64,000 bases of DNA from a bacterium (GCA_043804925.1 JAZDIP010000047.1:14987-78986), one strand, 5' to 3'. Shown: positions 29,693 through 57,769, counted from the first letter of the stretch. Notes: generated by a model not told the origin, from the sequence alone. Translations and numbers: made by a program.

Positions 29693-29696
29693 AATC

Positions 29697-34413: not shown

Positions 34414-35445
34414 ATGAGTTTTTCTGAACTTTGCATCAAATTATGTGATGTCGAATTGTCGTTACTTGACGATTTGAAAAAATACAGCACAACAAATAAT
34501 GAGTTATTATATCAATTGGAAAATCTGAAGGAAACTGCTACCAAAACATTGAATGAAGCTGAAATTCAAATCAAAAACCGCCAGAACGAACCTGAAACTT
34601 ATAATTTCTTAATTTCCTATTTAAAAGAAACTAAAATTATTACTGAGTTAATTAATAAGAATAAAAAGCACTTAGCCAACTTTTTTAATAGCAATAGAAA
34701 ATCCGTTGAAATTGAAGAGCTTATACAAAAAAAAATATTTTCACTACTAAATTCGAGATTTTTAATTATTACACAACGTAGGGTGTTGAAGTCTGGTGTA
34801 GATTTCGAAGAATTAAAAAAAGATAAGGAAGATATTGTTCAAAACGCTATGTTAAAAATCTCAAAAAATTATTTAAAAATCAATTATAAAATTGGTTTTT
34901 ATTATTGGGCTCTCAAGGTTCTATATAATAAAACAGGTGATTATTATCGTGAACGATTAAAGTATAGTTATTTTAATGATAACGTTGTAGAAATTTTAAC
35001 ATCAATTGATGATGCAATCAGCTATAAAGAAATAGAAAATGTGATAGAAGTTCTTGAAGGAAATAGAAACACTGTAATTTTCTCAATTCGCGATTGTATA
35101 CTAAAGTGTTTAAAAAAGTTAAATAAAGATTGCCAAAGATTCTTCAGGTTATTTCTTGATGAGGGATTAGATAAATGGGAAATGTGTGTTGCTTTTTATA
35201 GTATTTTTAATCCTGATGATTATTCGAAAGAACAGCAGGAGAAAATTATAGATAAATTTAATTCAAAAAAATCTTATTGTAAAAGTTTATTCTTAGAATT
35301 ACTTCAAAAAGCAAAATGTGTTGAATTAAAAGAAAACAAAAAAGATAAAAAGAAAAGTAAAAAGGTTAAAAAAGGAAATAAAAATGGGAAGAAAAATAAT
35401 AAAAATATTATACTGGCTGACTACATTGAGGGAGAAGCAAAATGA
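34414..35445 (+). CDS. divergent ECF-type sigma-70 family factor with N-terminal extension and lysine-rich tail
   Basis: A region-2-like segment (DIVQNAMLKISKNY...GFYYWALKVLYNKTGDYYRERLK, compare ...WLy.IarN...d..R...) and a region-4-like segment (CLKKLNKDCQRFFRLFLDEGLDKWEMCVAF). Confidence 0.5.
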   Translation: MSFSELCIKLCDVELSLLDDLKKYSTTNNELLYQLENLKETATKTLNEAEIQIKNRQNEPETYNFLISYLKETKIITELINKNKKHLANFFNSNRKSVEIEELIQKKIFSLLNSRFLIITQRRVLKSGVDFEELKKDKEDIVQNAMLKISKNYLKINYKIGFYYWALKVLYNKTGDYYRERLKYSYFNDNVVEILTSIDDAISYKEIENVIEVLEGNRNTVIFSIRDCILKCLKKLNKDCQRFFRLFLDEGLDKWEMCVAFYSIFNPDDYSKEQQEKIIDKFNSKKSYCKSLFLELLQKAKCVELKENKKDKKKSKKVKKGNKNGKKNNKNIILADYIEGEAK

Positions 35446-36416
35446 GCTGTATTAATGATAAAATCGGAAACAAATTGGAATTTTATCTTTTCAATAAATT
35501 AACAGAATCTGAAAAATTGGAGTTTGAAGAACATTTATTTGAGTGTAAATTCTGTTATGAACAGTATCGCGAGTTGTTTCCAGCGATTCAAACTATGCTT
35601 GAAAATACAGAATTTTTCAGGGCTGAGCTCGATAAATCAATTAATATTTTAAAAAAAAACGAAGATGTTTCGACAGAAAATACTGTTATAGGTTCACCAA
35701 TTGAACGACAAAATATCATTAAAAGAATCTTATCCAATAAGCTTACTTACTATTCAGCGGCTGCATCCGTTATTTTAGTTTTTGGTTTATATCTCACATA
35801 TCAAATTGGATATTTCTACGGGAAGGATGATAGTTATCAAAATAATAGAATTGCAGAACGTGGGGAAAGACTTTGGCATCATGAAAATTTTGGTGATACT
35901 GTTAATAATCCTTTGGGACCAGATAGTCACCGGATAAGAGAATCCCAACCATTGCCAGATGAGCAAATAGCAAGTATTGATTTGAGTTCCTTACCCGATG
36001 ACTCAAGAAATCCATGGGTATTATCTACTCAATTTAGTACAGATAGACCGGCAACAAACGAAAAATTTGAATCAGCTTTAAGAATTTACCGGGAGGGTAA
36101 TAAGTATTCACATGCATTGGAAAAATTCTTGAGCTGTGAGAGAAACGAAACTTCTAACTTTTATATTGCAATGTGCTATCTATACTTAGGTGAATTCACT
36201 TCTTCGATTCATATAATTAATCAAATGGGGAAAATTACAAATAGCGATATTAAGGATTTAGTTTATAAAGCTCTTGCTCATAATTTAATAAATATTAGAA
36301 GGCAGGAAGGAATTAATCGTATTAGTTTAATGAGAAATTTTTTAAATAATAATTATAGTAGAGATGAAATTCAATCCTTAGAAAATACAATAAATAATAT
36401 AAATATTGAAAATTAA
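35442..36416 (+). CDS. putative anti-sigma factor (zf-HC2 zinc finger, single TM helix)
   Basis: The HLFECKFCYEQY motif is an H-x3-C-x2-C zinc finger at the N-terminus, with one TM helix (LTYYSAAASVILVFGLYLTYQIG). Its start overlaps the sigma gene stop (ATGA). Confidence 0.5.
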   Translation: MSCINDKIGNKLEFYLFNKLTESEKLEFEEHLFECKFCYEQYRELFPAIQTMLENTEFFRAELDKSINILKKNEDVSTENTVIGSPIERQNIIKRILSNKLTYYSAAASVILVFGLYLTYQIGYFYGKDDSYQNNRIAERGERLWHHENFGDTVNNPLGPDSHRIRESQPLPDEQIASIDLSSLPDDSRNPWVLSTQFSTDRPATNEKFESALRIYREGNKYSHALEKFLSCERNETSNFYIAMCYLYLGEFTSSIHIINQMGKITNSDIKDLVYKALAHNLINIRRQEGINRISLMRNFLNNNYSRDEIQSLENTINNINIEN

Positions 36417-36447
36417 TATATCAACCATAAATTATTCGGAGAGCCAT

Positions 36448-39267
36448 ATGAAGACTTTTAGACTATTTTTTATTCCATTCATTACCTTTTTTTTAATTAT
36501 AGTAAATCTTTTTTCACAAATTAATACTACTAACTTTGATGAAATAAGAAACAGATATTCTTCAGCTGTTGTTGTAGTAAAGGTTATTAATAATCTTAAT
36601 GAAGAATTTCACGGGAGTGGAATTGTATTAGATTCTACAGGTTATATTGTAACCTGTAATCACGTTATTGCAGGAAGTAAAGAAATTAAAGTAATTTTTA
36701 ATGACAAAAAAGAGTATAATGTAGTATCATTTTGCAATGACCCGGTTAATGATATTGCTTTGCTAAAGATAAATGCTGGAGAATTGGAACATGTCGTGTT
36801 CAATCAATTAGGTTGCAATAAAGGAGAAAGTATTTGTGTCTTAAGTAATCCCGGAAATTTACGGAATATATTAGCTGTTGGGACAATTAGCAATTTTAAT
36901 ACATCGGGTTCTATAGTACTTGATGTAATAACTGCAAGAGGTTCATCGGGAGGGGCAGTTTTTACAACAAGCGGTAATGTTATAGGTATGATTGTATCAG
37001 GCGATGAAACACGAAGTATCACTAATGCCGTACCAATTCAGAAGATTGCTTCATTAAGGCAAAAGGGAGAATTTAAAACTTTGCCTACTACAATTCCCTT
37101 TCTAGATTGCAATCAGCTTTTAAATGAAGCTATTGATTCAATTAATAGTGGAATAAATTCTTATCATAGTGCCTTTAATCTGCTGTCCTTAATAATGAAT
37201 AGTTGTCCTGATAATCCCGGGGCTATATATTGGATGGCTTACATGTATTATAATTTGGGGAATTTTACAACCGCACTTAGTTATTATAACAGGGCATTAG
37301 AAAACAGGGATGCATTGCTTAAAATTAAAATGCTGCATGATGCTTATTTTGAGCGAGGCATTACATTAGTTGAACTTGATATGTATAGGAAAGCGATACC
37401 TGATTTCAAAGAAGCCCAGCAAATTTATCCTGTTTACAAAAACAAATGTTATTTTAATATATATTCATGTTTTTACAATCTTGACCAATGCGATAGTGCT
37501 ATCTTTTATTTCTTTAAAATTCCTTTGGAGGAAGCAAAAAACATGATTCTTGTCCGAAATACATGGGAAAATGTCATAACTTGTTTGGAAAAAACAAAAG
37601 GAGCGAATTATAAAGAAAGAATTGAATCCATTCGCAAGATTGTTGAATCATTACCTCCGCTAAATCCTGATTTTTATTTAAAAGAAGCATTGAAGTTGTA
37701 TAAATCAGGGAAATTGCAGGAAGCCAATGACTATTTGTTAGAAGGTATTTCAAAATATCCCGGAAATTATGATTTGAATTCAACGTTGGGATTGATGTTT
37801 TTTGAGCAGGGTATTCAAAGGGATGATAATAATAATTATAATTCAGCTTTACGATATTTTAACACTGCTTATAAGGTCAACGAAAGAGCAGATTTAGGCA
37901 ATAATATTGTTACTACATACTATTTGATGGCAAAATCACATTACTTATCAGCAATAGATTATTATAATCAATTGGTGATTGCAGATAATTGGGATGACCA
38001 TAAAGAAATTACAAAATTTCTTGATTCATCGAATTCTTATATAAGGAAGGCAATGCAGGATAGATATTTTAACAAAAATAATGCATCTAAATCAATTCTA
38101 TCTTTAGATACCAATATTAAATTGATGACTGCTCAAATATTAAGACAAAGAGAGAAATACAGAGAAGCACTCGATTCACTGGAGAAATATTTTGTTGACC
38201 CGAATAAATGTGAAATTCTATTTGAATTTGCAATGAATGAATTCAAATTAAAACAAAATAATAATGCTTTAAACTATATAAACAGGGCAATAGAGAATGG
38301 CAATGATTCAAAATGTCTTTGTAATATCCGGAATTTAAAAATTAATATTCTTACGAATTCAGATAATAATAAAGAAGCCTTACAAGAAGCTATGACTTTA
38401 AAAGATTTGGGATGTAAATCAGCTGGAGAACAAATGTGTTATACATTAGATAATTTTCTTGTTGATAAGTTCATTAAGAAAGAATATGATGATATAATAG
38501 ATTTTTTCATGGGTAATGACGAACTATTGGATATTTGTCCTTGTGCTAATTGGTTTTTGAGTGCTTCTAATTACAGAAAGGGAAGACTTGAGGACGAGAA
38601 GTTAAAAACAGATAGAAATCAGGCAGTTGCCAGCGAAACGAATATCCAAAATGTTTTGGAGTATTATAAACGTGCATTGACAAACTTATCAAAAGCACGT
38701 TCAATGGGATGCCAACGTAAGGATTTTTGTCTGGAATCAGCAATTCATAATTCCATGGGATTAATAATTGCGAACAATGGTAATTATATTGATTCCAGGA
38801 TAGATTACATGACTGCGAAGAAGTTTGCATCGGATAGATATGAACAGGAAGAACCTTGTAAAGGAGAATTGTTGGAAACTTATCTTCATTATGCGAATTT
38901 ATATGTATCTGATGTTGTACAAAATTACGATTCCTGCATAATTGTATGTAATGAAGGTTTAAATATATTCCCCAATAATTGTGAATTATCGTATTATTCG
39001 GCGTTTAGCTACTATAAATTATTTATTAGAGGTCAAAGCAATGAAGATTATTTATTAAGAGCTAACCAAATCGTCAATAAATTACTGGAATTTTGTCCAA
39101 AACATGTTGGTGCTTTAAGATTAGGTGTTGAGATTAATGTTCTTATGAAACAATATAAAAAAGCATGTGAATATTGCAGAAGTTTAATGAGGGAGGGGGG
39201 AGATAATCCTGATGTACCATGCTTAAAATGGTTAAGAGATAATTATCAGATTGACTGTCCTGAATAA
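36448..39267 (+). CDS. secreted trypsin-like serine protease (S1) domain fused to a ~750 aa TPR-repeat region
   Basis: Signal peptide. The catalytic-triad context (TCNHVIAG (His), NDIALLKI (Asp), RGSSGGAVF (Ser)) is followed by multiple TPR-like repeats. Start trimmed to MKTFRLFF after a GGAGAG SD. Confidence 0.65.
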   Translation: MKTFRLFFIPFITFFLIIVNLFSQINTTNFDEIRNRYSSAVVVVKVINNLNEEFHGSGIVLDSTGYIVTCNHVIAGSKEIKVIFNDKKEYNVVSFCNDPVNDIALLKINAGELEHVVFNQLGCNKGESICVLSNPGNLRNILAVGTISNFNTSGSIVLDVITARGSSGGAVFTTSGNVIGMIVSGDETRSITNAVPIQKIASLRQKGEFKTLPTTIPFLDCNQLLNEAIDSINSGINSYHSAFNLLSLIMNSCPDNPGAIYWMAYMYYNLGNFTTALSYYNRALENRDALLKIKMLHDAYFERGITLVELDMYRKAIPDFKEAQQIYPVYKNKCYFNIYSCFYNLDQCDSAIFYFFKIPLEEAKNMILVRNTWENVITCLEKTKGANYKERIESIRKIVESLPPLNPDFYLKEALKLYKSGKLQEANDYLLEGISKYPGNYDLNSTLGLMFFEQGIQRDDNNNYNSALRYFNTAYKVNERADLGNNIVTTYYLMAKSHYLSAIDYYNQLVIADNWDDHKEITKFLDSSNSYIRKAMQDRYFNKNNASKSILSLDTNIKLMTAQILRQREKYREALDSLEKYFVDPNKCEILFEFAMNEFKLKQNNNALNYINRAIENGNDSKCLCNIRNLKINILTNSDNNKEALQEAMTLKDLGCKSAGEQMCYTLDNFLVDKFIKKEYDDIIDFFMGNDELLDICPCANWFLSASNYRKGRLEDEKLKTDRNQAVASETNIQNVLEYYKRALTNLSKARSMGCQRKDFCLESAIHNSMGLIIANNGNYIDSRIDYMTAKKFASDRYEQEEPCKGELLETYLHYANLYVSDVVQNYDSCIIVCNEGLNIFPNNCELSYYSAFSYYKLFIRGQSNEDYLLRANQIVNKLLEFCPKHVGALRLGVEINVLMKQYKKACEYCRSLMREGGDNPDVPCLKWLRDNYQIDCPE

Positions 39268-39308: not shown

Positions 39309-39342
39309 TTTCGAGATTTTCCATTTTTCCGCAACATAGTAT
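39309..39342 (+). promoter_or_regulatory. conserved promoter-like motif TTTCGAGATTT-N12-CAACATAGTA, copy A (upstream of 39383)
   Basis: One of three copies (also 43720-43752 and 49123-49154) with near-identical flanks and spacing, each 40-50 nt upstream of a plus-strand start codon. Confidence 0.55.
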
Positions 39343-39382
39343 TTAAAGTTTATGTTGTTAATATTTTTAAAAGGAAAGAAAA

Positions 39383-39649
39383 ATGGAAAAGACAGACAAA
39401 ATTCCTTGCCCCAGATGCAAGGGTAAAAGTGTTAGTATTGGTTCACCCAATACATTTAAAGTTCTAAAATGGTTTCTGATTATTTTGGTTGGTGGTTCTG
39501 TTTCATCAGTATTGTCATATCTTACGGAAGTCAGGGCAGTTGGAATAATATCATTTTTTGTTATAGCTTTTATTGTAAAGACATTTCCAAATATGGTAAT
39601 GTTAAAATGTAACAGTTGTGGTAAAAGTTGGTTCCAGCCATATATTTAG
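39383..39649 (+). CDS. small membrane protein with split zinc-ribbon (CPRCKG...CNSCG)
   Basis: 88 aa with two CxxC pairs flanking two TM helices. Starts MEK, like the peptide at 43799. Confidence 0.45.
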   Translation: MEKTDKIPCPRCKGKSVSIGSPNTFKVLKWFLIILVGGSVSSVLSYLTEVRAVGIISFFVIAFIVKTFPNMVMLKCNSCGKSWFQPYI

Positions 39650-39718
39650 AAGCATTAAAAAACATTATTTTTTTTTAAAAGAAATTCATTATTGTCATAT
39701 TTTACTCAGGAGACTCAA

Positions 39719-40216
39719 ATGAAAAAATCATATTTAATTTTTCTTTTTATAAGTTTATTTTTATTTACAAATGTTTTTGTGAAAGCTCAAAGTAAAAGCT
39801 TAATAGACTGCTTGGAATCACTTCATTATTCTTCCATTCAATTAACACCGAATATGTACGGACATTTTGAAATGGAGGCAATGCTTGACGGTAAACATCC
39901 AATTGTACTAATTGTAGATACTGGTTCCAGCATGTCATTACTTAGCAAATCTCTTTTAGATTCCGTTGGCTACGTTACTCATCCTGTACCTGACCCTGAA
40001 GGCAGAGAATTGTGGAGAGTCCGCGTTGACAGTCTGACATTCGGGAAAGCTAATACCGGTCGTAAAGAATTAATTGTAGGTAACCTCGACGAATTATTTC
40101 CGGGATTTGATGCTTACGGTAAAAGAATACATGGATTAATCGGTTCAGATTTACTTTCAAGGTATTCTGCCCTTATAGACATTGAATGGTCAAGATTATA
40201 TTTACTTGTTAGATAG
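39719..40216 (+). CDS. secreted retropepsin-like (clan AA) aspartic protease
   Basis: Signal peptide and the VLIVDTGSSMSLL active-site D-T-G-S motif of bacterial retroviral-type aspartyl proteases. Start trimmed to the ATG after AGGAG. Confidence 0.6.
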   Translation: MKKSYLIFLFISLFLFTNVFVKAQSKSLIDCLESLHYSSIQLTPNMYGHFEMEAMLDGKHPIVLIVDTGSSMSLLSKSLLDSVGYVTHPVPDPEGRELWRVRVDSLTFGKANTGRKELIVGNLDELFPGFDAYGKRIHGLIGSDLLSRYSALIDIEWSRLYLLVR

Positions 40217-40249
40217 AAACAATCTTTAAACAAATTTTTGGAGGTTAAA

Positions 40250-40948
40250 ATGAAAAAAGCTAATATTCTAATTGCATTAGCTTTACTTGTTATAGCAAAT
40301 AGCAATCTCTTTTGTGGGAAATATTCGGATACTGTAGAAATCAATGTTTTTGCAGAATTAATTGATTACGAAGTTCCTGCTGACACTAATTATATATATG
40401 GAGGAGCAGCATTAATGGAAGGTGATGTTAATGTAGGTTTATCAAAAAAAGGACTTGATTCTGCTCATCTTATTTTTATACAAGCTTATTTCAATATGGG
40501 ATTTGGGAAAATTAAAAATACAGGACAATCTGAAATAATATTGAATTGTGATGATGAACTTAAATCATCTGTAAGAAAACAAGTTGATGGGAGTCAGTCA
40601 TCTTCAGCAGATTTAAGTTTGATAACTTTGTCAAAAAGTGATTTTGATGTCATTTTTCCTGAGTCTATTTTAATCCGATATGATAAATTCAATTGGATGG
40701 TTGTAGATAATTTCAACTTTAATAAAGAAGATTTAGATTTACTCCTCAAAGAAAAGAAAGGGGAAAATAATACAGGGATATTAGCTGAAGATTATAAAAT
40801 GCAGATAAGACCTGAAGTTGCCACAATGAAAGCTATAAGAAGTAAGGAATGGAAAATAAAAATTGGCGCGACATTGCATATTAAAGAAAATCAAGAATCA
40901 GGGGAATATACAGGGCTTTGCCGTGTAATTGTAAAATATAAGGATTGA
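40250..40948 (+). CDS. hypothetical secreted protein
   Basis: Signal peptide and no recognised motif. Start after GGAGG. Confidence 0.4.
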   Translation: MKKANILIALALLVIANSNLFCGKYSDTVEINVFAELIDYEVPADTNYIYGGAALMEGDVNVGLSKKGLDSAHLIFIQAYFNMGFGKIKNTGQSEIILNCDDELKSSVRKQVDGSQSSSADLSLITLSKSDFDVIFPESILIRYDKFNWMVVDNFNFNKEDLDLLLKEKKGENNTGILAEDYKMQIRPEVATMKAIRSKEWKIKIGATLHIKENQESGEYTGLCRVIVKYKD

Positions 40949-40990
40949 GAAAAATATACGGAATTATTAAAAAATATAAATGGAAGATAA

Positions 40991-41551
40991 ATGAAAAATT
41001 TTAAAATAACAAATTATATATTTTTTGCTTTTTGCTGTTTATTGTTTTTGGTATCATGTGATAACGATGAACCATCAGAGAAGTTAAATAAATATTACAA
41101 AGATATGGAAAACAGATATTATCCACTTAAAGATATATCCTTTGAAATGGCAAGCTTTCAACTTAATTGGGTTTTATTGCATCTTCAAATAGCTGAAATA
41201 TGTCCTAAAGATTGTAAAATCTCTTGTTATACTAATAAGCAAAAAGAAAGATTTCTTAAATCTTATTATACTGGGAAGTTGTATAAACAAATGATGAATA
41301 ACAGATATTTTCTTGAATCCATATTAACTCTGAAGAAAGCAAGTATAGATTCACTAAATGATTTAATTTTTAAGCTTAGAAATTATCGAACATATGTTAG
41401 TGCTGATGAAAATAAAAGCGGAGATAAACGAATTACAACTGAAGCCGGTTGTCATGTAGAATTAAAAATTGACTCAATATTTTCACAAATAATTATTGAC
41501 TTCATTAAACTCGATGAAAAAAGGATAAGGTCAATATGGAGAAAGGAATAA
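40991..41551 (+). CDS. hypothetical lipoprotein
   Basis: Lipobox LVSC. No recognised motif. Confidence 0.4.
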   Translation: MKNFKITNYIFFAFCCLLFLVSCDNDEPSEKLNKYYKDMENRYYPLKDISFEMASFQLNWVLLHLQIAEICPKDCKISCYTNKQKERFLKSYYTGKLYKQMMNNRYFLESILTLKKASIDSLNDLIFKLRNYRTYVSADENKSGDKRITTEAGCHVELKIDSIFSQIIIDFIKLDEKRIRSIWRKE

Positions 41552-41701
41552 TATATCCAAAATTGGTTGATATGTCTTTACATTGAATTATAAAACATCT
41601 CTGAAAAAGATTAGATTATATTGTTAAGAGTGGATGCAATGGATTATTTCTAAAATAATAAATATAATTTTTATATAATAATATTATCACAGGAGTATAA
41701 A

Positions 41702-42838
41702 ATGAAAAAATTAATTACTTTACTTAGCATTATCCTCGCTTTTGCAGGATGTAAAACGGTTGAGATTTGTCCACCGGTGATTTACTCACCTACTTATGTT
41801 ACTTGTTTCGATAAAGTACCGGCTGTTTTTGAGTTTGCCATATCACCTTATCATGGCAATGGGATTAATGTAGTAGTAGGAAAAGTTCTGGATATGAAAG
41901 GTGATTCTGTTGCTACACTAACATGCATTCCCTTATACCAAATTGCTGATGTTATGGCTTATCCTCCAACACCATATGGTAAACAAGAATGGAGAGGAAC
42001 AGTTGATAAAATTTTACCTGAAGGAAAATACAAAATTGAATTATCACATGAATGCCATGAATTATTTACCATGAGTGCTTCAATACTTGAAATATTTAAA
42101 ACAGGTTTGATTAATGCAGATGAGCTTGACAGGAATTTGAATTTCCTGACAGTTTATGGTAGTAGATTAAGTATAAATGCTCAACCATTTTCAGGTAGCA
42201 AAATAATTGCTGATCAATTCAGAATCTATTTAAGTACTGACGTTGATAAACTAAGTCCACCTTTCGCAGGATTGTACATGGATGAAACCATAGAAATTGG
42301 TGCTAAAGCAAATAATGTTACATTAGAAGTTGTGTGGATTCAACCTTACACGAATAAAGAGGTAGTACTTTTTCAAGAAAAGAACTATTCAATAAAACAA
42401 AAACAACCAACAATCAATACTAGGAATCAAAGAGTTATTGCAGATTCGGAGGATGGTAAAAAAATCAGTATTGTTTCTCAGAGTTTGGAAATCTTTTATC
42501 CTCCAATCGGTACTTTGGATGAAAGCAGTTCAAAAAAAGCAGAAATTAAAATATCAGCCAAAAACGGAACTGTCAATATCAATGGTGGAACTTATGAATT
42601 TTCATCGGACCCTCAAATAGAAACTGAATTTGATGAGAACTCAATAAGAGTAAGAATCTTTACTGAACTTACGGGCTCTTTGGACAAAGGTCAAAAATCA
42701 ATAGAGGGAACAATCTCTTTGGAATTAAGAGCTACTGCCATAAATCCAATTAACGGAAAAGCATCAGATATCAAAAAGGAACCGATTACAGTACCCATTA
42801 ATATTTCCATCGATAAATCAGGTAAAGAAAAAAAATAA
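41702..42838 (+). CDS. hypothetical lipoprotein
   Basis: Lipobox FAGC. Beta-rich. No recognised motif. Confidence 0.4.
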   Translation: MKKLITLLSIILAFAGCKTVEICPPVIYSPTYVTCFDKVPAVFEFAISPYHGNGINVVVGKVLDMKGDSVATLTCIPLYQIADVMAYPPTPYGKQEWRGTVDKILPEGKYKIELSHECHELFTMSASILEIFKTGLINADELDRNLNFLTVYGSRLSINAQPFSGSKIIADQFRIYLSTDVDKLSPPFAGLYMDETIEIGAKANNVTLEVVWIQPYTNKEVVLFQEKNYSIKQKQPTINTRNQRVIADSEDGKKISIVSQSLEIFYPPIGTLDESSSKKAEIKISAKNGTVNINGGTYEFSSDPQIETEFDENSIRVRIFTELTGSLDKGQKSIEGTISLELRATAINPINGKASDIKKEPITVPINISIDKSGKEKK

Positions 42839-42893
42839 GTAAATAAAAATAAAAATCGAAATAAACATTTTAAAATTAATTTTTGAGGGAAAT

Positions 42894-43706
42894 ATGAAAA
42901 ATCAAAAACTATATTGGCTTTTACTAATAATTTGTTGTGTTTTTATTGGTAATAGTATAATGAATGCACAAACCTACAAGGAAATGGAAATAACCGTTGA
43001 GGTCGAAGTTACGATTGAGCCGGACCCAAATCCTGACACTCTACCTTTGCCACCTCCAATTTATATTAATCTGCTTGCTGATGTTGAATCTCCAAGTAAA
43101 GACACAACAGGTAAAACATATATTTCCGGTAATGCAATAGAAGGGGAAAGAATATCTGTAAAAAGTAATTTGATTTCCTCAGATATTAATCAATATATAA
43201 TTGAAAAAAGATTGTTTAAAACTTTAGCTTCGAGTCATTCGGGTTATTGGAAATATTATATTGACAGTAGTGTTTCGATGGACTTTGGAGTATTATATTC
43301 AACCGATAAGGCAGGTTTGGCAGTACTAAATATGGATAGCACTAAGACTGTACTTGGAGGTATAAAATTTAAAAATGACTTATGTAGACCGGCAACAGTA
43401 ATTCTGAAAATGAAAGATTTCAATAAAGATAACTCTAAAGAAAAGAAAGTTAAAATAGACCTGGATACGATTTATTTCAAGATTGAACTCCCCAAAGAAG
43501 GAATGTTAAAGAACGATAAAGGCGACATGATGAGAATCAATTATCTAACATCTTCAAAAGAAATTTGGCATGTCAAAAAGGATGAAAATTCTAAAATTAA
43601 GATTACAGGTGCTATTGAATTAACAGCAAAACAGCCAAAAGGCACTTATCGGGGAAAATTTACTTGCAAAGTAATTTTCGTTTTACCGGATATAGTTGTG
43701 AGATAA
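42894..43706 (+). CDS. hypothetical secreted protein
   Basis: Signal peptide. No recognised motif. Confidence 0.4.
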   Translation: MKNQKLYWLLLIICCVFIGNSIMNAQTYKEMEITVEVEVTIEPDPNPDTLPLPPPIYINLLADVESPSKDTTGKTYISGNAIEGERISVKSNLISSDINQYIIEKRLFKTLASSHSGYWKYYIDSSVSMDFGVLYSTDKAGLAVLNMDSTKTVLGGIKFKNDLCRPATVILKMKDFNKDNSKEKKVKIDLDTIYFKIELPKEGMLKNDKGDMMRINYLTSSKEIWHVKKDENSKIKITGAIELTAKQPKGTYRGKFTCKVIFVLPDIVVR

Positions 43707-43719
43707 AATAAAAAATATT

Positions 43720-43752
43720 TTTCGAGATTTTACCATTTGTCTCAACATAGTA
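43720..43752 (+). promoter_or_regulatory. conserved promoter-like motif TTTCGAGATTT-N12-CAACATAGTA, copy B
   Basis: Followed by AGGAGG and an ATG at 43799. Confidence 0.55.
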
Positions 43753-43798
43753 GTCGTAGTTAATAAATAGTTTTAGAAAATTTTTATAGGAGGCAATA

Positions 43799-43903
43799 AT
43801 GGAAAAGCACGATACAGTTACATTCAGAAAAGTCAAGGATACAATATACTGGTTTGTATTCTTTTTGTTAATGCTTTTGGTTTGTTTACCATTGGCTTTT
43901 TAG
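43799..43903 (+). CDS. small hydrophobic peptide (34 aa, MEKHDTVTFRKVKDTIYWFVFFLLMLLVCLPLAF)
   Basis: Strong AGGAGG SD 7 nt upstream and a single TM helix. Missed by the >=60 aa ORF track. Sits directly downstream of motif copy B. Confidence 0.35.
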   Translation: MEKHDTVTFRKVKDTIYWFVFFLLMLLVCLPLAF

Positions 43904-43945
43904 TAGGGAATTATTATATCAATAATTATTATAAGAGGTGAAGTA

Positions 43946-44581
43946 ATGTTAGTATTTGAGAATGAAGATGGAAAACAAAAGACAGTAGAAGAGGGTTGGT
44001 CATGGGTTGGTTTCTTTTTCCCTCACATCTGGGTTTTTGTAAAAGGACTTTGGGAAATTGGATTCCTGTTTGTACTTTTTGTTGCTATACAAATTCTAAC
44101 AATTGGTATTCAGGAACTTGGAATTGTCTACTGGATTATCAGTATTGTTGCAAGATTTATTATCGGTGCTAAGGGTAATAAAATGGTTGTAGATAACCTT
44201 ATAAAAAAAGGATATTATCAAACTGGTGGTGTTACTAATATTGAAGAATATATCCAAAGAGCTGAGCGTCTTATTGAGATAGAGAATTACGAGGGAGCAA
44301 TTAGAAATTATTCATTCTACATTGAAATCAATGATAGCAATCCGGAAGTGTTTTTAAATAGAGGAATGGCACATTTCGATATAAAGAATTACAGTGAGGC
44401 TTTATCTGATTACAACACAGCTTTAAATCTAAATCCAAAATATTCAGATGCACTTTACTGCCGTGGTGAAGTCAAAATCGAATTTGAGGATATTGAAGGT
44501 GCTTGTAAAGATTTTTTCAAAGCACAAGAATTGGGCGACAAAGATGCTGATGAAATGATTGCAAAATATTGTAGTGCATGA
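43946..44581 (+). CDS. membrane-anchored TPR-repeat protein
   Basis: Two N-terminal TM helices, then three TPR units (AIRNYSFYIEINDSNPEVFLNRGMAHFDIKNYSEALSDYNTALNLNPKYSDALYCRGE...). Confidence 0.55.
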   Translation: MLVFENEDGKQKTVEEGWSWVGFFFPHIWVFVKGLWEIGFLFVLFVAIQILTIGIQELGIVYWIISIVARFIIGAKGNKMVVDNLIKKGYYQTGGVTNIEEYIQRAERLIEIENYEGAIRNYSFYIEINDSNPEVFLNRGMAHFDIKNYSEALSDYNTALNLNPKYSDALYCRGEVKIEFEDIEGACKDFFKAQELGDKDADEMIAKYCSA

Positions 44582-44665
44582 TTTCAAGTAACACTTATTG
44601 AATAATGAATATCATTGATATTATTAAATTTTAAATGATTGTTTACCTTATAAAAAGGAGGTTTT

Positions 44666-44974
44666 ATGTTTAAAAATCCATTTTCTTTCAAAGGTCGCAT
44701 TCGTCGCAGCGAGTACGGAATTAGCTTCATAATAAGTTTCATCTTACAAATCTTATTTAGAATTTCTGAGTTAGAGATAGAACCATTAGTGATATTATTT
44801 TTATATATTCCGGTTTCTTGGTTTATGCTAGCACAGGGTGCAAAAAGAGCTCATGATCTTGACTCAAGTGGATGGATACAAATTATTCCATTTGTTGTGT
44901 TATGGTTGATATTTGGAAAAGGTAATGTTGGGAAAAATGATTATGGGCCTGATCCTAAAGAAATATCCGGATAA
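44666..44974 (+). CDS. DUF805-family inner-membrane protein
   Basis: FKGRIRRSEYGISFI ... AKRAHDLDSSGW matches the DUF805 pattern (GRI.R.eYw...ikRlHD.g.sgw). Confidence 0.6.
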   Translation: MFKNPFSFKGRIRRSEYGISFIISFILQILFRISELEIEPLVILFLYIPVSWFMLAQGAKRAHDLDSSGWIQIIPFVVLWLIFGKGNVGKNDYGPDPKEISG

Positions 44975-45037
44975 AGATATTTCATGAGTATAAAATAAAG
45001 CATAATAATTATTAACAATAATAAAGAGGAATAAGCT

Positions 45038-46192
45038 ATGGAAAATAATAATACAACATTTAAGCAAAAGTCAATTTACTATCAAGATGCTTCAGATAGG
45101 ACAAAAGAAAGTGGTATAAATTCAGCTCTGAGTATCATAGGATGGTCATTTATAATTGGCTCTGTTGGATTTATAATTTGGATTATCTCCAGAACATTTT
45201 TCTCAACCATCGGTTTTCTTGTTACTATAGGTGGAGTTATTGGTATAATAGTTGGACTTATAAGAACAATAATTAACATTGTTCGTAAAACAAAGAGGAT
45301 AAAATGTCCGAAATGCAATACTGAAGTAAATGTTTATGGCTCAGTAAAAAAGTATATGTGTCTCAATTGTAGGAGTTTACTGCTTTTAGGCAAAGATAGT
45401 ACTTTAAATTTAAAACCTAAAAAATGTCATTATTGTGGACATGAAACATTTGTAACCGAGGACCATGGCAATTTCTTATGCTCCGATTGTGGTATCATTT
45501 TGCAAAGCAATACATCTTCATATAAAAATAAGGACGAGAGGGAAATTAACAATCTCATTAACTGCCCCAATTGCAATAAACAAGTTCCCAAAACAGTAAT
45601 TTATTGCAAATATTGTAATGAGATATTAATAAATGAATTTGAATTATGTAGTGTCAGTGACCAATTACGATATGACCTAGATTGGAAAATCGGTAAAAGT
45701 TCATTAGGTCATTTTAATTATGCAAGAGCAGTTCTTAAAAATATTCGAGTTTTAATTTTAAAAGCGGAAAATCTTTGGGCTGTTCGAAATTTAAAATGGA
45801 AACTTGAAACTGTTTTTATCTCTTTAGAGGAAGCTATTACAGATCATAAGTTATATCAAGAAATAGGAAATTTACTACCTGAGATTGATTTACTTTATTC
45901 TGATATTTTAGAGCAGGAACTGAAATTTGTAAAAAGATTTGATCAAAAGATAAAATATCCTAAAGATGAATTCTCATTGATAACTTATGAGCCACAAATA
46001 CAAATCCGAAGAAAAATTGAATCTATCTTTGGTTCCAGACTCGAAGCGATTGGCTCTGTTGGTGTATGGGGAAATAATCTTGTCGAGATTAAAGAATTCG
46101 ACAAAAAAGCAAGATTAGAAAGTTATTCAAACTTAGAATCAGAAGTTGAACGGTTCTTAAAATGGAAATCAAAACATAAAGAAACGAATTAA
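45038..46192 (+). CDS. membrane protein with three zinc-ribbon modules and a C-terminal cytosolic domain
   Basis: Two TM helices, then CPKCN..CLNCRS, CHYCGH..CSDCG and CPNCNK..CKYCN. Confidence 0.45.
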   Translation: MENNNTTFKQKSIYYQDASDRTKESGINSALSIIGWSFIIGSVGFIIWIISRTFFSTIGFLVTIGGVIGIIVGLIRTIINIVRKTKRIKCPKCNTEVNVYGSVKKYMCLNCRSLLLLGKDSTLNLKPKKCHYCGHETFVTEDHGNFLCSDCGIILQSNTSSYKNKDEREINNLINCPNCNKQVPKTVIYCKYCNEILINEFELCSVSDQLRYDLDWKIGKSSLGHFNYARAVLKNIRVLILKAENLWAVRNLKWKLETVFISLEEAITDHKLYQEIGNLLPEIDLLYSDILEQELKFVKRFDQKIKYPKDEFSLITYEPQIQIRRKIESIFGSRLEAIGSVGVWGNNLVEIKEFDKKARLESYSNLESEVERFLKWKSKHKETN

Positions 46193-46233
46193 ATAAATAC
46201 TAGATGTTCCATATAAATTTAGAATATAAAAGA

Positions 46234-48399
46234 ATGAAAAAAATAGTAACAACATTAGTAATTTTATACTCTACGTTTTTTGCAAACCTCTTTTCTCAAG
46301 ATAGCTCAAATGTGCCCTGCAAAGTTTTGGGCTTCGGAAAATTACATGATATTGCTATAAGTCCCGACAGTAAGAAATTAGCTAGTGCTTCATCAGCTAT
46401 GATTGTGATATGGGATTTGGAGACTGGAGATTCACTAAAAACTCTATCTGGAAATTCAGATTATATAAGGTCCATCAGTTGGTCACCAGATAGTAAAATC
46501 CTTATTGGTGGGAGTAATAATGGGACAATATTTTTTTGGAATATTTCCAGCGGTAAAATAATCAGGACCATCAAGGCATATTCACATGGTTATGTTTGGT
46601 CTGTTAGCTGTTCACCAAAAGGGAATATTCTTGCAACCGTAAAATCGGATAAGACAATAAAAATATGGGACATTTCCAGCGGTAAAGAAATCATAACTTT
46701 AAAAGGGCATACTGATTGGATATGGTCGGTCAGTTGGTCCCCGGACGGCAAAAGACTAGCCAGTGTGAGTGCGGATAAGACAATAAAAATATGGGACATT
46801 TCCAGAGGTAAAGCAATCCGAACACTTGAAGGACATACTGATGATGTAGGATCAGTCGCATGGAGTCCTGACGGCAAAAAGTTGGCAAGCGGAAGCTTGG
46901 ATAATACAATAAAGTTATGGGATATAGAGAACGTCAAAGAACTGATGACTCTCAAAGGGTATGCTTATTCACAAAATTCTGTAAGTTGGAGTCCCGATGG
47001 CAGCAAACTGGCAAGCGGAAGTTTGGATATGACTATCAGAATATGGGATGCAACAAGCGGCAAAAAACTGAAAAAACTTGAAGGGCATACAAAAGGGATA
47101 CATTCAGTCAGTTGGAGTCCCGATGGTACAAAACTAGTAAGCGGAAGTGGAGATGGAACAATTAGGATATGGTATTTAGAACCGGAAGAAGAAAAAGAGA
47201 GAATTAAAATTCCACCGATTGCCTTGTCTTTTTCAGGAGTTTTTATTCCAATTATTGTTCGGGAGTATGAAGGTGTTCAATCAACCAACAAAAATGTTGA
47301 CACATATTTATCTCCGGAAATGATGCTAAAAGTAAATGTATATGACAGGTTCAGTTTTTGGGTAAACTACACAAAGCCATTTATTACTTCATCCTCGTCC
47401 ATTAATGAAAAGAAAATTTTTAGCGAATGGAACGGAAATGCTTTTGGCTTTGGAATTGGTTACAATATTTTCAATCCCGAAAACAGATGGGGATTAAATG
47501 CATATCTCGGCTGGCTGTATTACGATAGTAAAGCAGTATCGGAATACAACAGCCAAAAGATGAACGGTAGAACGATTTGGCGGGCTTTTTCAATTGGTGC
47601 TGAATTAACCTACAGACCAATCGAGAGCTTTCCCGGATTGCAATTAACATTCAGACCTACTTTAAATTATTCATTAAATGAAGACCTGGTATTTAATATT
47701 TCTAATAATCCAATTATTATTGGACATAGCTTAGCGAATATAAATTTAGGAGTTAGGTATACTTTTGATTTGGGATTTACTTCAGAATCAAAAGCTGAAA
47801 CTGAGGAAATTGTGAAAAGAGAAGAGATAGAAGAAGTTAATATATGCGACCAAATCTGGATGAAAAAAAATCTCGATGTTGAGCATTATCGAAACGGTGA
47901 CTCAATTCTGTATTGTGAGACGCAAGCAGAATGGAAAGAAGCATATAATAACAAAGAAGGTGCTTGGTGCTATTGTAATAACGACTCAACAAACGGGAGA
48001 ATTTACGGTAGACTTTATAATTGGTATGCAGTAAACGACTCAAGAGGACTTGCTCCCGAGGGCTGGCATGTGTCCACATTTGATGAGTGGACTGAATTAG
48101 TTAACTGTCTTGGAGGAAAAGATGTGGCTGGAGGTAAGCTAAAAGAAGCAGGAACGACTCATTGGAATAGTCCAAATACTGGAGCCACTAATGAAAGTGG
48201 TTTTACTGCTCTTCCGGGAGGTGCCTGTGCTACTAATGGCAATTCTGGAGATAATGGTATTCATGGCAATTGGTGGGTGTTAAATAAAAAATTTTCTAAT
48301 AATAAAATTTGGAGCTTTTACTTAAATTATAAATCAGTCTCTATAAAGAGTTTCGATTTTAAGGATATGGGTTTTTCTGTTCGCTGTGTAAAGGATTAA
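46234..48399 (+). CDS. WD40-repeat / beta-barrel / Fibrobacter-succinogenes-major-paralogous-domain (Fib_succ_major) fusion protein
   Basis: Signal peptide. Seven WD40 units (GH..WSVSWSPDGK.LASGS.D.TIKIWD). A central region has an alternating beta-strand pattern. The C-terminus matches TIGR02145 closely (ICDQIWMKKNLDV...GRLYNWYAV...EGWHVSTFDEWTELVNCLGG...ESGFTALPGG...GFSVRCVKD). Confidence 0.75.
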   Translation: MKKIVTTLVILYSTFFANLFSQDSSNVPCKVLGFGKLHDIAISPDSKKLASASSAMIVIWDLETGDSLKTLSGNSDYIRSISWSPDSKILIGGSNNGTIFFWNISSGKIIRTIKAYSHGYVWSVSCSPKGNILATVKSDKTIKIWDISSGKEIITLKGHTDWIWSVSWSPDGKRLASVSADKTIKIWDISRGKAIRTLEGHTDDVGSVAWSPDGKKLASGSLDNTIKLWDIENVKELMTLKGYAYSQNSVSWSPDGSKLASGSLDMTIRIWDATSGKKLKKLEGHTKGIHSVSWSPDGTKLVSGSGDGTIRIWYLEPEEEKERIKIPPIALSFSGVFIPIIVREYEGVQSTNKNVDTYLSPEMMLKVNVYDRFSFWVNYTKPFITSSSSINEKKIFSEWNGNAFGFGIGYNIFNPENRWGLNAYLGWLYYDSKAVSEYNSQKMNGRTIWRAFSIGAELTYRPIESFPGLQLTFRPTLNYSLNEDLVFNISNNPIIIGHSLANINLGVRYTFDLGFTSESKAETEEIVKREEIEEVNICDQIWMKKNLDVEHYRNGDSILYCETQAEWKEAYNNKEGAWCYCNNDSTNGRIYGRLYNWYAVNDSRGLAPEGWHVSTFDEWTELVNCLGGKDVAGGKLKEAGTTHWNSPNTGATNESGFTALPGGACATNGNSGDNGIHGNWWVLNKKFSNNKIWSFYLNYKSVSIKSFDFKDMGFSVRCVKD

Positions 48400-48456
48400 T
48401 TCTTTTACTTTTTTCAGAACTTTTAACTTTTATAAATTTATTTGGGAGGTATAAAG

Positions 48457-49047
48457 ATGAAAAAAATATTATTAATCATGTTATTATTAACTGGGATAAT
48501 ACTTTTATCATGTGGAAAATCCAAAAAAGTACTTGTTCGGAACACGTATCGAACGAATGCAGGTATAGAAGGAGACGTGTCAGGTTTTGTAGAATATAAA
48601 TATGGAATAGACAGAGTTGATGAAGATATTAAAGAAAAAATTCAATTGACAACGGATTTTAGTATTACAGTTGAAAACGAATGGTGCACGGAAATTCCAC
48701 GTTTCAGAGGAGATACTTTTAAAATAAAATCAAAAAACTCCAATGATCCAAAGAATTTCGATTTCTTAGTTAATTTTTACTCTGTCTGGAAAAAGAAAAA
48801 ATTATTTGGTAGTTATCTTGATCCATATTTTAAAATTAAGGAGATATGGGAAGTGATAAATATTAAGGACACAACAAATAAAAAATATTGGGAAATTAAT
48901 TATCAGCTTGATAAGATTGAACTCAACTCTGGTATTCAAAAGTATGATTCAGATATCCAAATAAAGATAAATGAAATTATTTTACCGTTAAGAGCTCCGA
49001 TAATAAAAGAAATAAGGGAATTTATAAATGAGCATTCGAATAAATAA
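48457..49047 (+). CDS. hypothetical lipoprotein
   Basis: Lipobox LLSC. Start after GGGAGG. Confidence 0.4.
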   Translation: MKKILLIMLLLTGIILLSCGKSKKVLVRNTYRTNAGIEGDVSGFVEYKYGIDRVDEDIKEKIQLTTDFSITVENEWCTEIPRFRGDTFKIKSKNSNDPKNFDFLVNFYSVWKKKKLFGSYLDPYFKIKEIWEVINIKDTTNKKYWEINYQLDKIELNSGIQKYDSDIQIKINEIILPLRAPIIKEIREFINEHSNK

Positions 49048-49122
49048 ATAGCACTTAAAATTCAGAAATGAACAGGGATAATAAATGGTGTTCAGAAAAA
49101 ATAAATAATTAATAAAAATTAT

Positions 49123-49154
49123 TTCGAGATTTCTTTGATTCCTCCAACATAATA
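49123..49154 (+). promoter_or_regulatory. conserved promoter-like motif TTTCGAGATTT-N12-CAACATAATA, copy C
   Basis: Lies 43 nt upstream of the ATG at 49197. Confidence 0.55.
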
Positions 49155-49196
49155 CGTAGAATTAAATTTTGTTTTACAAATTATCTGGAGGATACT

Positions 49197-50570
49197 ATGA
49201 AAAAGTTTACTTACCTTTTTGCAATAATTCTATTGCTTTCGTCAAGCAATATTTTATGCCAATATGCAGATATTTCAGCAAGTCCAACCTCTGGGAGTGC
49301 ACCTTTAAAAGTAAGTTTTAGGGCAACTTTTACAGGTGCAACTTGTTTTTCCTCATATTGGAATTTTGGAGATGGATATACATCAACATCAACCTCTCCA
49401 ACACATACATATACTAAACCCGGTAAATATACTGTGCAGGCAGAATTTGAGATAATGACAAATGATTATCCGATTCCGATAACATGTCGTATTACAAGAA
49501 TTGGATATATAAATGTTACTCAAACAAATCCGACTCCCAATTTAGTTGTTTCTGATAAGACGATGTATTTTAGTGGTCCTATCCAAACGGATACATTTCT
49601 CTATAATAATCTAAAAAATTCTAATTATGGTTATTACTATTGGAAACCTGGTACTAAAATGGCAATGGCAATGCATCCGAAGGGTTCATGTAAAATTCAA
49701 GCAATCCAGGTGTATTGCAGCGATAAAACACAAAATTTTAAAATCGGCATTAATAATTTGAATGAAAATCCCGATAGCGAATTGTATGAATCTCAAGTAT
49801 TAACTTCTACTCAAAAAGGATGGTATGAACATAATGTAGAAAATAAAAATATTAGCATTAATGGTAATTTTCTAGCTTCTTTTAATATGATTGATACTAT
49901 AGCTTCTTTAGGTTATAACAAAAATTATTGTGACAGAGCATGGGATTTTGATGGTTCAACTTGGTCAAAGTATAATGAGACCTACTTTATTAATGCGATT
50001 GTGAAGTACCATAAACCAGTGAGTCCGGAAGGAAATATAGTACTTAATAATTTAGGCGGAAATAATCTTGTAATTAGTGAAGTTATTCCTAATAACGACT
50101 GGATCATTAATATTTCACCCGACACTTTAGTCGTTCCATATAATGTGCAAAAAAGTATCAAATTTTCTTTCGATTATTCAAAGATGTCCTATGGGATTAA
50201 CAGTGGAACTATTACCATATTCTCTAATGATCCAAATAAGTCTCAATTCGATGTTTATATTACTTCTGAAAGATTGATTACTGATGTTGCGGAAAAAAGA
50301 ACATTTTCAAATCCAGTATTAAATATTTTCCCAAATCCAGTTAAAGATAAAATGATAATTCAATATCATTTAAACCAAATCCAAAATGTAGAGTTATCAA
50401 TAACAAATGACTTGGGAATTGAGTGTGCCAAATTCACAAACTCAGCTAAAATATTTTCGAATGATAATACAATTGAATTTGATACAAATCACTTAGCTTC
50501 GGGAGTATATTTTTGCACACTTAGATGTGAAGATTATGTTGAAACAATTAAGTTTTTTGTTATCAGGTAA
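49197..50570 (+). CDS. PKD-domain secreted protein with T9SS C-terminal sorting domain
   Basis: Signal peptide. The N-terminal PKD-like segment ends ...WNFGDGYTSTSTSPTHTY. The C-terminal NIFPNPVKDKMIIQY...GVYFCTL...KFFVIR is a Por_Secre_tail. Confidence 0.65.
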   Translation: MKKFTYLFAIILLLSSSNILCQYADISASPTSGSAPLKVSFRATFTGATCFSSYWNFGDGYTSTSTSPTHTYTKPGKYTVQAEFEIMTNDYPIPITCRITRIGYINVTQTNPTPNLVVSDKTMYFSGPIQTDTFLYNNLKNSNYGYYYWKPGTKMAMAMHPKGSCKIQAIQVYCSDKTQNFKIGINNLNENPDSELYESQVLTSTQKGWYEHNVENKNISINGNFLASFNMIDTIASLGYNKNYCDRAWDFDGSTWSKYNETYFINAIVKYHKPVSPEGNIVLNNLGGNNLVISEVIPNNDWIINISPDTLVVPYNVQKSIKFSFDYSKMSYGINSGTITIFSNDPNKSQFDVYITSERLITDVAEKRTFSNPVLNIFPNPVKDKMIIQYHLNQIQNVELSITNDLGIECAKFTNSAKIFSNDNTIEFDTNHLASGVYFCTLRCEDYVETIKFFVIR

Positions 50571-50617
50571 AGAATAATATTTGTTAAAAATAATTAGAAA
50601 CGTAAAGGGAAAATACC

Positions 50618-51223: not shown

Positions 51224-51226
51224 TTC

Positions 51227-51868: not shown

Positions 51869-52003
51869 AATTAATTACTTTAAATTATATTTAAATTTAG
51901 TGTAATAATATCAAAGGTAATTATGTGATACTTGAATTGACGGATTTGACAAACAACAGATTGAGTGTTATTTAATATTTTAACATTAAAACGGGATAAG
52001 ATA

Positions 52004-52693: not shown

Positions 52694-53099
52694 TAAACCG
52701 TTCTTAATGTTTTTATTGGAGAAGTTGTTTCATTTACTTTGCTCCGAACTATTAATATCCAATAGGAGAAGGTTATCCGGATTTTTCTTTCAGCCAAGAG
52801 ATTATAAGAAACACCGGAATAAAAAATTCAGTATTTGTTCTTGGAGATTGTCTGACAATGCATTTTAAGTTCCTTGAAGAATTGATTTTATGTTCGAAAA
52901 ATTAAACATTGACATTAAGATTATTATTAATTATATTTGAAAATGATACTTTTCCAATATTGAAGAAATTTACAAAAAAATTATATATAGAAAATATTAT
53001 TTTTGAAACATTTTTAGAATTACCGGGATATAGGTAATAAGTATTTCTTAGCAATTTTGATAAGAAAATAAGTAGTTTATTAAATAAATTGGAGGTATC

Positions 53100-53306: not shown

Positions 53307-53318
53307 GGAAAAACCAAA

Positions 53319-53939: not shown

Positions 53940-53958
53940 TATAATTTTAGGTACAATC

Positions 53959-55674: not shown

Positions 55675-55712
55675 CTGGCTTTAGAACAAATCAGAATGAA
55701 AAAAAAGATATT

Positions 55713-56171: not shown

Positions 56172-56208
56172 AAATAATTTTTTTTATAATATAAAGAAAG
56201 GTACTATA

Positions 56209-57759: not shown

Positions 57760-57769
57760 AAAATAAGAT

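Follow-up and report, generated by a model that had tools for sequence, protein, structure and literature searches.

A repeated bipartite element as a candidate ECF-type promoter beside a divergent sigma/anti-sigma/protease operon

Extracytoplasmic function (ECF, group IV) sigma factors were reportedly classified by Staron in 2009. A classification of these factors is also given by Casas-Pastor 2021 (PMC7826278). N-terminal extensions are rare among ECF sigmas (PMC7826278), and the spacers of ECF promoters measure 14-17 bp (PMC6061681). In Myxococcus xanthus, the DdvS/DdvA system has four look-alike ECF promoters across a neighbouring multi-operon locus (PMC6061681, PMC11506125). In this study we analysed a 64,000-nt stretch of bacterial DNA (GCA_043804925.1 JAZDIP010000047.1:14987-78986, hereafter the window), in which a bipartite element, TTTCGAGATTT-N12-CAACATA, occurs in three exact copies, all on the + strand, next to an operon for a divergent ECF-type sigma factor, an anti-sigma factor and a protease. 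The three intergenic copies probably (at a probability that we put at about 0.68) act as promoters read by an alternative ECF-type sigma factor, most probably the protein encoded at 34414-35445, and would control a local regulon. The features that bear on this reading are listed below; positions count from the first letter of the window, and the + strand is the strand as shown.

34414..35445, + strand: divergent ECF-type sigma factor, 343 aa (NCBIfam, HMMER family and PDB profile match)
34751-34780, + strand: intragenic motif copy, ATTCGAGATTT-N12-CAACGTA, matching at 16/18 positions, in the same orientation within the sigma open reading frame (ORF)
35442..36416, + strand: transmembrane zinc-finger (ZAS/CHCC-type) anti-sigma factor with a TPR-like C-terminal domain (zinc-finger signature, weak family matches)
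36406..39267, + strand: trypsin-like (HtrA/DegS-like) serine protease with long fused TPR arrays, either secreted or anchored in the membrane (Pfam, NCBIfam)
39309-39338, + strand: promoter-like copy 1; protease stop 42 nt before, ATG at 39383, 45 nt after
43720-43749, + strand: promoter-like copy 2; preceding stop 14 nt before, ATG at 43799, 50 nt after
49122-49151, + strand: promoter-like copy 3; preceding stop 75 nt before, ATG at 49197, 46 nt after

Since copy 1 is only 42 nt past the sigma/anti-sigma/protease operon, the adjacent sigma factor is the obvious candidate reader of the element. The locus reads as a new and highly divergent instance of the well-known ECF sigma/anti-sigma/protease module, with a non-canonical recognition sequence. 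Like the classified ECF systems, it has a sigma2/sigma4 factor beside a zinc-finger transmembrane anti-sigma factor, and a bipartite candidate promoter with a spacer in the 14-17 bp range, highly conserved among its sites, with the putative target genes beside the sigma gene. Unlike in those systems, the boxes here (TCGAGATTT / CAACATA) contain no AAC/CGT cores, a promoter copy lies inside the sigma gene with none upstream of it, and the sigma factor has a ~95-aa extension and a Lys-rich tail and scores under the curated threshold, with no ECF group assigned.

Like this locus, the M. xanthus DdvS/DdvA system pairs an ECF sigma with a transmembrane anti-sigma factor of the CHCC zinc-finger type that is linked to TPR/protease modules, and has several promoters of the same type (candidate promoters here) spread over an adjacent locus as a local regulon. 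In DdvA a TPR-CHAT part is fused to the anti-sigma factor, whereas here the trypsin-like/TPR protease is separate, and the locus of a distant relative (L067) has a separate TPR-CHAT protein. The DdvS promoters carry AAc/cGT and one of them is upstream of ddvS, neither of which is seen here. DdvS controls defence genes (CRISPR-Cas and CBASS), whereas on the present locus PADLOC gave domain-level matches only and no defence island was recognised.

Compared with E. coli sigmaE/RseA/DegS, the locus likewise links a trypsin-fold HtrA-family envelope protease genetically to a single-pass anti-sigma factor and an ECF sigma, and its protease domain matches both the DegS and the DegP models. Where DegS has a PDZ domain, the protease here bears TPR arrays, and its gene belongs to the sigma operon. 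Its presumed partner, the anti-sigma factor, is ZAS-type and not RseA-type, and its cleavage is something that we purely infer, while the putative targets are orphan surface/membrane proteins rather than the chaperones and proteases controlled by sigmaE. The N-terminal extension, together with a putative second sigma-dependent promoter at the sigma factor's own gene, recalls the isoforms of Streptomyces sigmaR and Mycobacterium SigH and the pro-sequence of BldN (PMC7826278). For sigmaR, however, the sigma-dependent promoter is upstream and yields a longer isoform, whereas the site here is in the first sigma2 helix and could give no functional shorter sigma. The unusual features of the locus are only two, the intragenic copy, whose codons are as close to the motif as the peptide allows, and the N-terminal extension; current concepts are left unchanged by what is a well-formed but ordinary regulatory architecture.

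The repeated element and the adjacent operon

The initial annotation had described three motif copies with identical boxes at a fixed 12-nt spacing, 40-50 nt upstream of + strand start codons. This description holds: exact matches start at 39309, 43720 and 49122, the last one base earlier than the 49123 given at first, and the distances to the ATG (45, 50 and 46 nt) were measured from the last base of CAACATA. In its extended form the downstream box is CAACATAGTA, CAACATAGTA and CAACATAATA in copies 1, 2 and 3, respectively. The copies are placed in gaps of 115, 92 and 149 nt between genes, the preceding gene being also on the + strand, and an AGGA or GGAGG Shine-Dalgarno sequence stands ahead of each ATG that follows. 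The transcription start of copy 1 is predicted at ~39345.

When ≤3 mismatches were allowed, 4 matches were found in the window vs 0.26 expected, and none of the dinucleotide-preserving shuffles (0/100) reached 4. A graded scan of both strands, which admitted spacers of 11 and 13 besides 12, gave scores of 18, 18, 18 and 16 of 18 with all others ≤14, so the true sites are cleanly apart from the background. In a 160-nt alignment around the four copies, identity was found only in the two boxes, and the spacer and flanks were generally AT-rich, which rules out that the copies are duplicated segments or ends of mobile elements. The four copies are separately maintained instances of a bipartite asymmetric signal. 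The 10-mer TTCGAGATTT occurs 5 times in the window, and each of the 4 occurrences on the + strand has CAACRTA exactly 12 nt downstream. The fifth (22529-22538, - strand) falls inside a gene for a SpoIIE/PDZ/GAF phosphatase (19841-22678, - strand), close to the 5' end of that gene, and has no CAACRTA box at the right distance; ~0.1 10-mers of this kind are expected in the window by chance. In copy 1 only (39332-39357), CAACATA and a TATGTTG located 12 nt further downstream make up an inverted repeat, which is missing from copies 2 and 3.

The element has a promoter-like anatomy, with two asymmetric boxes, a fixed 12-nt gap, a span of 30 nt, an orientation matching that of the genes and a short distance to the ribosome-binding sites. 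The identity of two boxes around an unconserved T-rich spacer points to the anatomy of sigma-70-family promoters. Near-perfect identity among sites is typical of ECF regulons, and ECF sigmas tolerate little deviation. With TTCGAG or CGAGAT as the -35 and CAACAT as the -10, the spacer is 14-16 bp; bipartite co-oriented elements with the ~14-17 bp spacer of ECF promoters were thus found upstream of genes. The spacing had been proposed to fit ECF-type promoters rather than the Bacteroidota sigmaA consensus, and our results agree with this. TAnnTTTG, the -7 element that goes with a TTTG at -33 in Bacteroidota sigmaA promoters, was present in the upstream 150 nt of 8/30 genes tested, and it was not found in the 150 nt upstream of 39383, 43799 and 49197, where no housekeeping promoter of the Bacteroidota type was recognised. 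Because TAnnTTTG occurs elsewhere but not before the three units, the repeated motif is not the standard promoter of the host.

By its profile matches, ORF 34414-35445 encodes an ECF-type sigma factor that is very divergent and extended by ~95 aa at its N-terminus. Its NCBI record is a hypothetical protein (V1779_07925) in a 309-aa version (P0001). The layout comprises the N-terminal helical extension (~95 aa), sigma2 at ~aa 96-197, sigma4 at ~aa 225-299 and a disordered Lys-rich tail. Pfam gave a weak, sub-threshold match to Sigma70_r2. A HMMER search against 1.84e9 cluster representatives gave 26 matches, including P0001 itself and a 55%-identical fragment (P0002); the others were sigma-like proteins, most of them of ~190 aa (range 118-328 aa), and they align from their own residue ~20 to query residue ~104. 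When the sigma-family profile was compared with the PDB, ECF sigmas only were matched, over both domains (SigW 3.9e-14, SigH 8e-13, SigE, AlgU and E. coli sigmaE). The AlphaFold2 model (mean predicted local distance difference test score, pLDDT, 70.6) has three N-terminal helices (aa 3-92), then a sigma2-like bundle (96-197) and a sigma4-like bundle (225-299), with the disordered Lys-rich tail beyond. As in ECF sigmas, the domains are sigma2 and sigma4 only, and the similarity is to ECF models.

The only close relative of the sigma factor, L061, is on a 1,094-bp ENA contig that ends short of the first intergenic motif, and the sigma lineage is nearly unique in public data. Both the N-terminal extension (34414-34700) and the ~40-aa Lys-rich tail (35310-35445) are present in this sole relative. 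Its sigma gene is split by an apparent frameshift/indel at ~436-460; the upstream ORF ends with YYREKSIIIMIM at a stop codon and P0002 restarts at 501, and the split is either an assembly error or a pseudogene. No window-like motif was found upstream of the sigma genes in the more distant loci L062, L063, L064 and L067.

The anti-sigma start overlaps the sigma stop codon (ATGA). The N-terminus of the anti-sigma factor, MSC...EEHLFECKFC, shows the CHCC/ZAS signature (Cys3 + H-x3-C-x2-C), a single hydrophobic/transmembrane segment is located at ~aa 100-126, and the family matches were below cutoff (Pfam zf-HC2, E=1e-3; NCBIfam antisigma, E=2.9e-4). The signature M.C..P.IG.L..YEF..LS..EK..FE.HLL.C..C was found directly after sigma relatives in nine independent loci (L067, L071-73, L078-80, L082 and L083), which makes sigma and anti-sigma a conserved cognate pair, the anti-sigma factor being encoded immediately downstream of its sigma.

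The true start of the protease is probably the Met at 36445. The protein is matched by Pfam Trypsin_2 (5.5e-20) and TPR_2 (1.2e-18) and, over part of the models, by NCBIfam degP_htrA_DO (5.8e-21) and DegS (7.7e-14). Its His/Asp/Ser motifs (TCNHV, NDIALL and GSSGGAV) are intact, and it has a signal-anchor sequence. The ECF-family profile, the HxxxCxxC anti-sigma motif and the trypsin-like/TPR domains are all in agreement with the sigma/anti-sigma/protease identities given to this operon at first. In L067 (217-5502), a distant sigma-family member is followed by a zf-HC2+TPR anti-sigma factor and then by a 1,289-aa TPR-CHAT (caspase-like) protease. This suggests that the sigma / ZAS-TPR anti-sigma / TPR-protease module recurs with interchangeable protease folds.

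A fourth copy within the sigma gene

The claim that all copies lie downstream of the sigma/anti-sigma/protease operon is right for the three intergenic copies, but it missed a fourth copy, at 34751, inside the sigma gene itself. This copy is in frame in the codons for N-S-R-F-L-I-I-T-Q-R-R of the first sigma2 helix, and the protein motif (A/S)RFL...Q(H/R)R is conserved across the sigma family. The 2 mismatches of the copy are the minimum that the peptide permits at 34751-34780. Given the peptide and the codon usage of the window, P(≤2 mismatches)=0.0015, i.e. 0.15% of synonymous encodings, and the codons used include the rare TCG (8.8% of Ser) and CGT (12% of Arg). Between L061 and the window, the nucleotide identity of the sigma gene is 72% overall; both motif boxes are identical, and the spacer between them differs, with two amino acids altered. 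All the box codons (7/7) are unchanged vs a background synonymous-codon identity of 66% (P about 0.05), and the 20-nt identical run over the -10 box is the joint longest of the gene. These figures suggest, but do not prove, selection on the DNA motif within the sigma coding sequence.

In the AT-rich relatives P0003 and P0005, the default codons read AGATTT-N12-CAACATAGA, and those of GC-richer relatives do not. Conservation of the intragenic motif at the DNA level across the whole family was rejected, because the AT-rich codon usage of the conserved RF...QHR helix explains the likeness. A DNA-motif match beyond codon usage is suggested for the window lineage only.

Since the copy is inside sigma2, no functional shorter sigma can be obtained from it. 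Its most plausible role would be sigma-dependent transcription of the anti-sigma and protease genes, which would give negative feedback. A fuller scheme can be put forward tentatively, although we regard it as doubtful: the sigma would bear a working promoter of its own target type in its sigma2-helix codons and thereby drive the anti-sigma factor and protease, with negative feedback and no positive autoregulation, while the three perfect copies would switch on an accessory surface/membrane island. If true, this intragenic-promoter wiring would add to ECF signalling a variant that has been described for none of the classified groups, and the copy, if confirmed, would be a new, if minor, case of a regulatory sequence superimposed on coding DNA.

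The promoter reading and competing explanations

If the intergenic copies are promoters of this kind, the upstream box (T)TTCGAGA(TTT) would be the -35 element read by sigma4 and CAACATA(G/A)TA the -10 element read by sigma2, and transcription would start ~6-8 nt past the -10 box, giving ~40-nt 5' leaders that end in the Shine-Dalgarno sequence. In the resting state, the zinc-finger anti-sigma factor (35442-36416) would hold the sigma at the membrane. An extracytoplasmic signal, sensed via the TPR domains, would cause the trypsin-like/TPR protease (36406-39267) to start anti-sigma degradation, and the sigma freed in this way would turn on the three adjacent units, with ~13-16 membrane, lipoprotein and secreted (type IX) proteins. 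The intragenic copy would serve sigma-dependent transcription of the anti-sigma and protease genes in place of the usual autoregulatory promoter upstream of sigma. The proposed proteolytic trigger and circuit are drawn by analogy with sigmaE/RseA/DegS and DdvS/DdvA. What the sequence shows directly is the motif with its statistics and placement, and which proteins the operon encodes; we infer recognition by the 34414 sigma, the start sites and the role of the intragenic copy.

Several results weigh against this reading. The common ECF cores AAC (-35) and CGT (-10) are missing from TTTCGAGATTT and CAACATA, and among the four copies CGT is found only in the intragenic CAACGTA. These cores are not common to all ECF groups, so that their absence lowers the ECF-promoter claim without excluding it. 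No site ≥14/18 was found in 34100-34413 upstream of the sigma gene, where the classical signature of autoregulation is missing, and the copy within the gene is in the first sigma2 helix, incapable of giving a functional shorter sigma. The NCBIfam sigma70-ECF match (TIGR02937, aa 128-252; E=4.5e-10, 39.4 bits) is just under the 42.9 cutoff, and the best Foldseek matches of the sigma model in the PDB, sigmaE and AlgU, have non-significant E-values. Searches of JGI metagenomes and of viral contigs (IMG/VR) gave no close relative of the sigma, and no recurring 6+6 bipartite motif was found in 18 metagenomic loci of distant sigma-family members and L062-L069. Comparative support is almost nil, as no genome with >1 copy of TTCGAGATTT-N12-CAACRTA was found among 185,579 species-representative genomes, a collection outside which the source genome lies; the 60 single matches in unrelated taxa are at chance level. 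The interpretation draws on the anatomy of the element and its surroundings in this one window, with a single 1.1-kb relative for comparison.

The same missing AAC/CGT cores, and the absence of the motif upstream of the sigma gene, would also fit an operator or activator site for some other regulator, or a promoter of another alternative sigma from outside the window, the units then being co-regulated but not by the 34414 protein. Our scans covered the 64-kb window, part of a contig that measures at least 151 kb, and a sigma or regulator encoded elsewhere could read the motif, a point that counts against the 34414 protein as well; weak TAnnTTT-like strings between the motif and the ATG in copies 1-3 keep some room for a downstream housekeeping promoter. 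However, the boxes are asymmetric with no dyad or direct-repeat symmetry, all copies are oriented as the genes with a promoter-like span and start-codon distance, and no other sigma or classical transcription factor was found in or beside the cluster when most window ORFs ≥120 aa were scanned. The fourth copy, moreover, is within the sigma/anti-sigma operon with a codon choice tuned to the motif, and we consider control by another factor unlikely. Sites of recombination or of mobile elements (cassette boundaries, att-like sites or miniature element ends) delimiting three cassettes in an accessory island are very improbable: no integrase, recombinase or transposase domain was found in the cluster ORFs scanned with Pfam, the spacer is unconserved, there are no inverted repeats or target duplications, the motif also occurs, in the sigma gene and in L061, in frame within the codons of a conserved helix, and it has no multi-copy occurrence in viral contigs or other genomes. 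These results are set against the direct repeats 4.4-5.4 kb apart, each just past a stop codon, the cluster of orphan genes near two tRNA genes, and a relative with a 92%-identical enolase that lacks synteny on the enolase side facing the sigma cluster. A phage or mobile origin was rejected on the basis of the searches of viral contigs and the lack of a recombinase in the Pfam-scanned ORFs.

Action of the motif as RNA, in the form of a leader, small-RNA or processing signal at the 5' ends of the units, carries hardly any weight. The motif is in untranslated gaps and the CAACATA of copy 1 can pair with TATGTTG, as described above, but this hairpin is missing from copies 2 and 3, no Rfam matches were found, leader folding was no better than that of shuffles (z = -0.8, +1.5 and +1.7), and bipartite conservation with a free spacer is unlike an RNA helix. 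That the motif recurs by chance in AT-rich intergenic DNA could be argued from the ~30% G+C of the window and the single chance matches in 60 unrelated genomes, but three exact 18-position matches with identical spacing and orientation, together with 0.26 matches expected and 0/100 shuffles reaching 4, leave this a negligible probability, and chance was excluded by the shuffle statistics and the graded scan.

Recognition of the three intergenic copies by the adjacent ECF-type sigma, if confirmed, would provide a ready-made promoter/sigma/anti-sigma triplet whose recognition sequence departs from the classical ECF consensus. Such a triplet could serve as an orthogonal expression switch and would add an example of diversification in sigma2/sigma4 specificity. 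It would also assign ~15 orphan envelope/secreted proteins to one stimulus-response unit and tie a TPR-bearing trypsin-like protease to anti-sigma control.

Downstream genes, host and wider window

The putative transcription units that follow the three copies are:

39383..43706, + strand: transcription unit 1, downstream of copy 1
43799..49047, + strand: transcription unit 2, downstream of copy 2
49197..50570, + strand: first gene of unit 3, encoding a PKD-domain protein that ends in a C-terminal sorting domain for type IX secretion (Pfam, NCBIfam)

Unit 1 contains genes for an 88-aa zinc-ribbon membrane protein, a retropepsin-like Asp protease, two DUF4402 proteins and two lipoprotein-like orphans; a 150-nt gap in it (41552-41701) may hold a further promoter. 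Unit 2 contains genes for a 34-aa membrane peptide, a DUF2628+TPR protein, a DUF805 protein, a multi-zinc-ribbon membrane protein, a WD40+Fib_succ_major protein and a lipoprotein-like orphan. The first protein of unit 3 is matched by Pfam PKD (2.3e-9) and Por_Secre_tail (1.6e-9) and by NCBIfam TIGR04183, and the unit may extend into 50618-52693. Most of the gene content named in the initial annotation was recovered with Pfam, i.e. Asp_protease_2, two DUF4402, TPR+DUF2628, DUF805, zinc ribbons, WD40+Fib_succ_major and PKD+Por_Secre_tail. Its term 'envelope regulon' agrees with the membrane, lipoprotein and secreted locations of these proteins; for such a mixed set of orphans it is a plausible label for location and is silent on function.

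PADLOC gave domain-level matches only on the locus (the trypsin domain of RT-protease, retropepsin PDC-M08B and WD40), and membership of a defence system was rejected with no convincing match. A role of the island in defence or surface variation, under sigma/anti-sigma/protease control as in DdvS/DdvA, found no positive support. Past the first gene of unit 3, a paralogous small-gene pair (51227/51965; window 51227-52693) has a CPCC-type Cys-rich N-terminus, and a second paralogous pair (55713/57770; window 55713-58225) encodes proteins of 152 and 151 aa with no Pfam match. Both pairs are interleaved with TPR, OmpA/PD40 and NIF-phosphatase genes, in a pattern like arrays of immunity-type genes.

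The housekeeping genes in the window include those for enolase, PGK, SHMT, GcvP and phosphoglucomutase. The closest named relatives of the enolase are from a Bacteroidetes/Chlorobi-group bacterium (87%), Kapabacteria (77-78%) and Ignavibacteria (76%), and several window proteins carry type IX secretion sorting domains. The host appears to belong to a poorly known, Kapabacteria/Ignavibacteria-like lineage of the Bacteroidota-Chlorobi group. Strong GGAGG/AGGAG Shine-Dalgarno sequences were observed at many + strand genes of the cluster (39360-59000). Classical Bacteroidia are largely without Shine-Dalgarno sequences, and for this reason the strong ones here fit a Kapabacteria/Ignavibacteria-like lineage.

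In the region 34000-59400, a run of ~25 kb, the genes are exclusively on the + strand, the GC skew is strongly positive and the G+C content is for the most part ~28-31%. Most of the encoded proteins are orphans, and the run begins 4.6 kb past two tRNA genes. It may constitute an accessory island; the ORFs scanned included no integrase. A Bacteroidota-type housekeeping promoter, TTTG-N19-TATTTTTG, is located at 29452-29487, before the first tRNA (29496). The spacer between the two tRNA genes (29580-29695) is a long imperfect inverted repeat, tagaaaatagaag...ttctattttcta.

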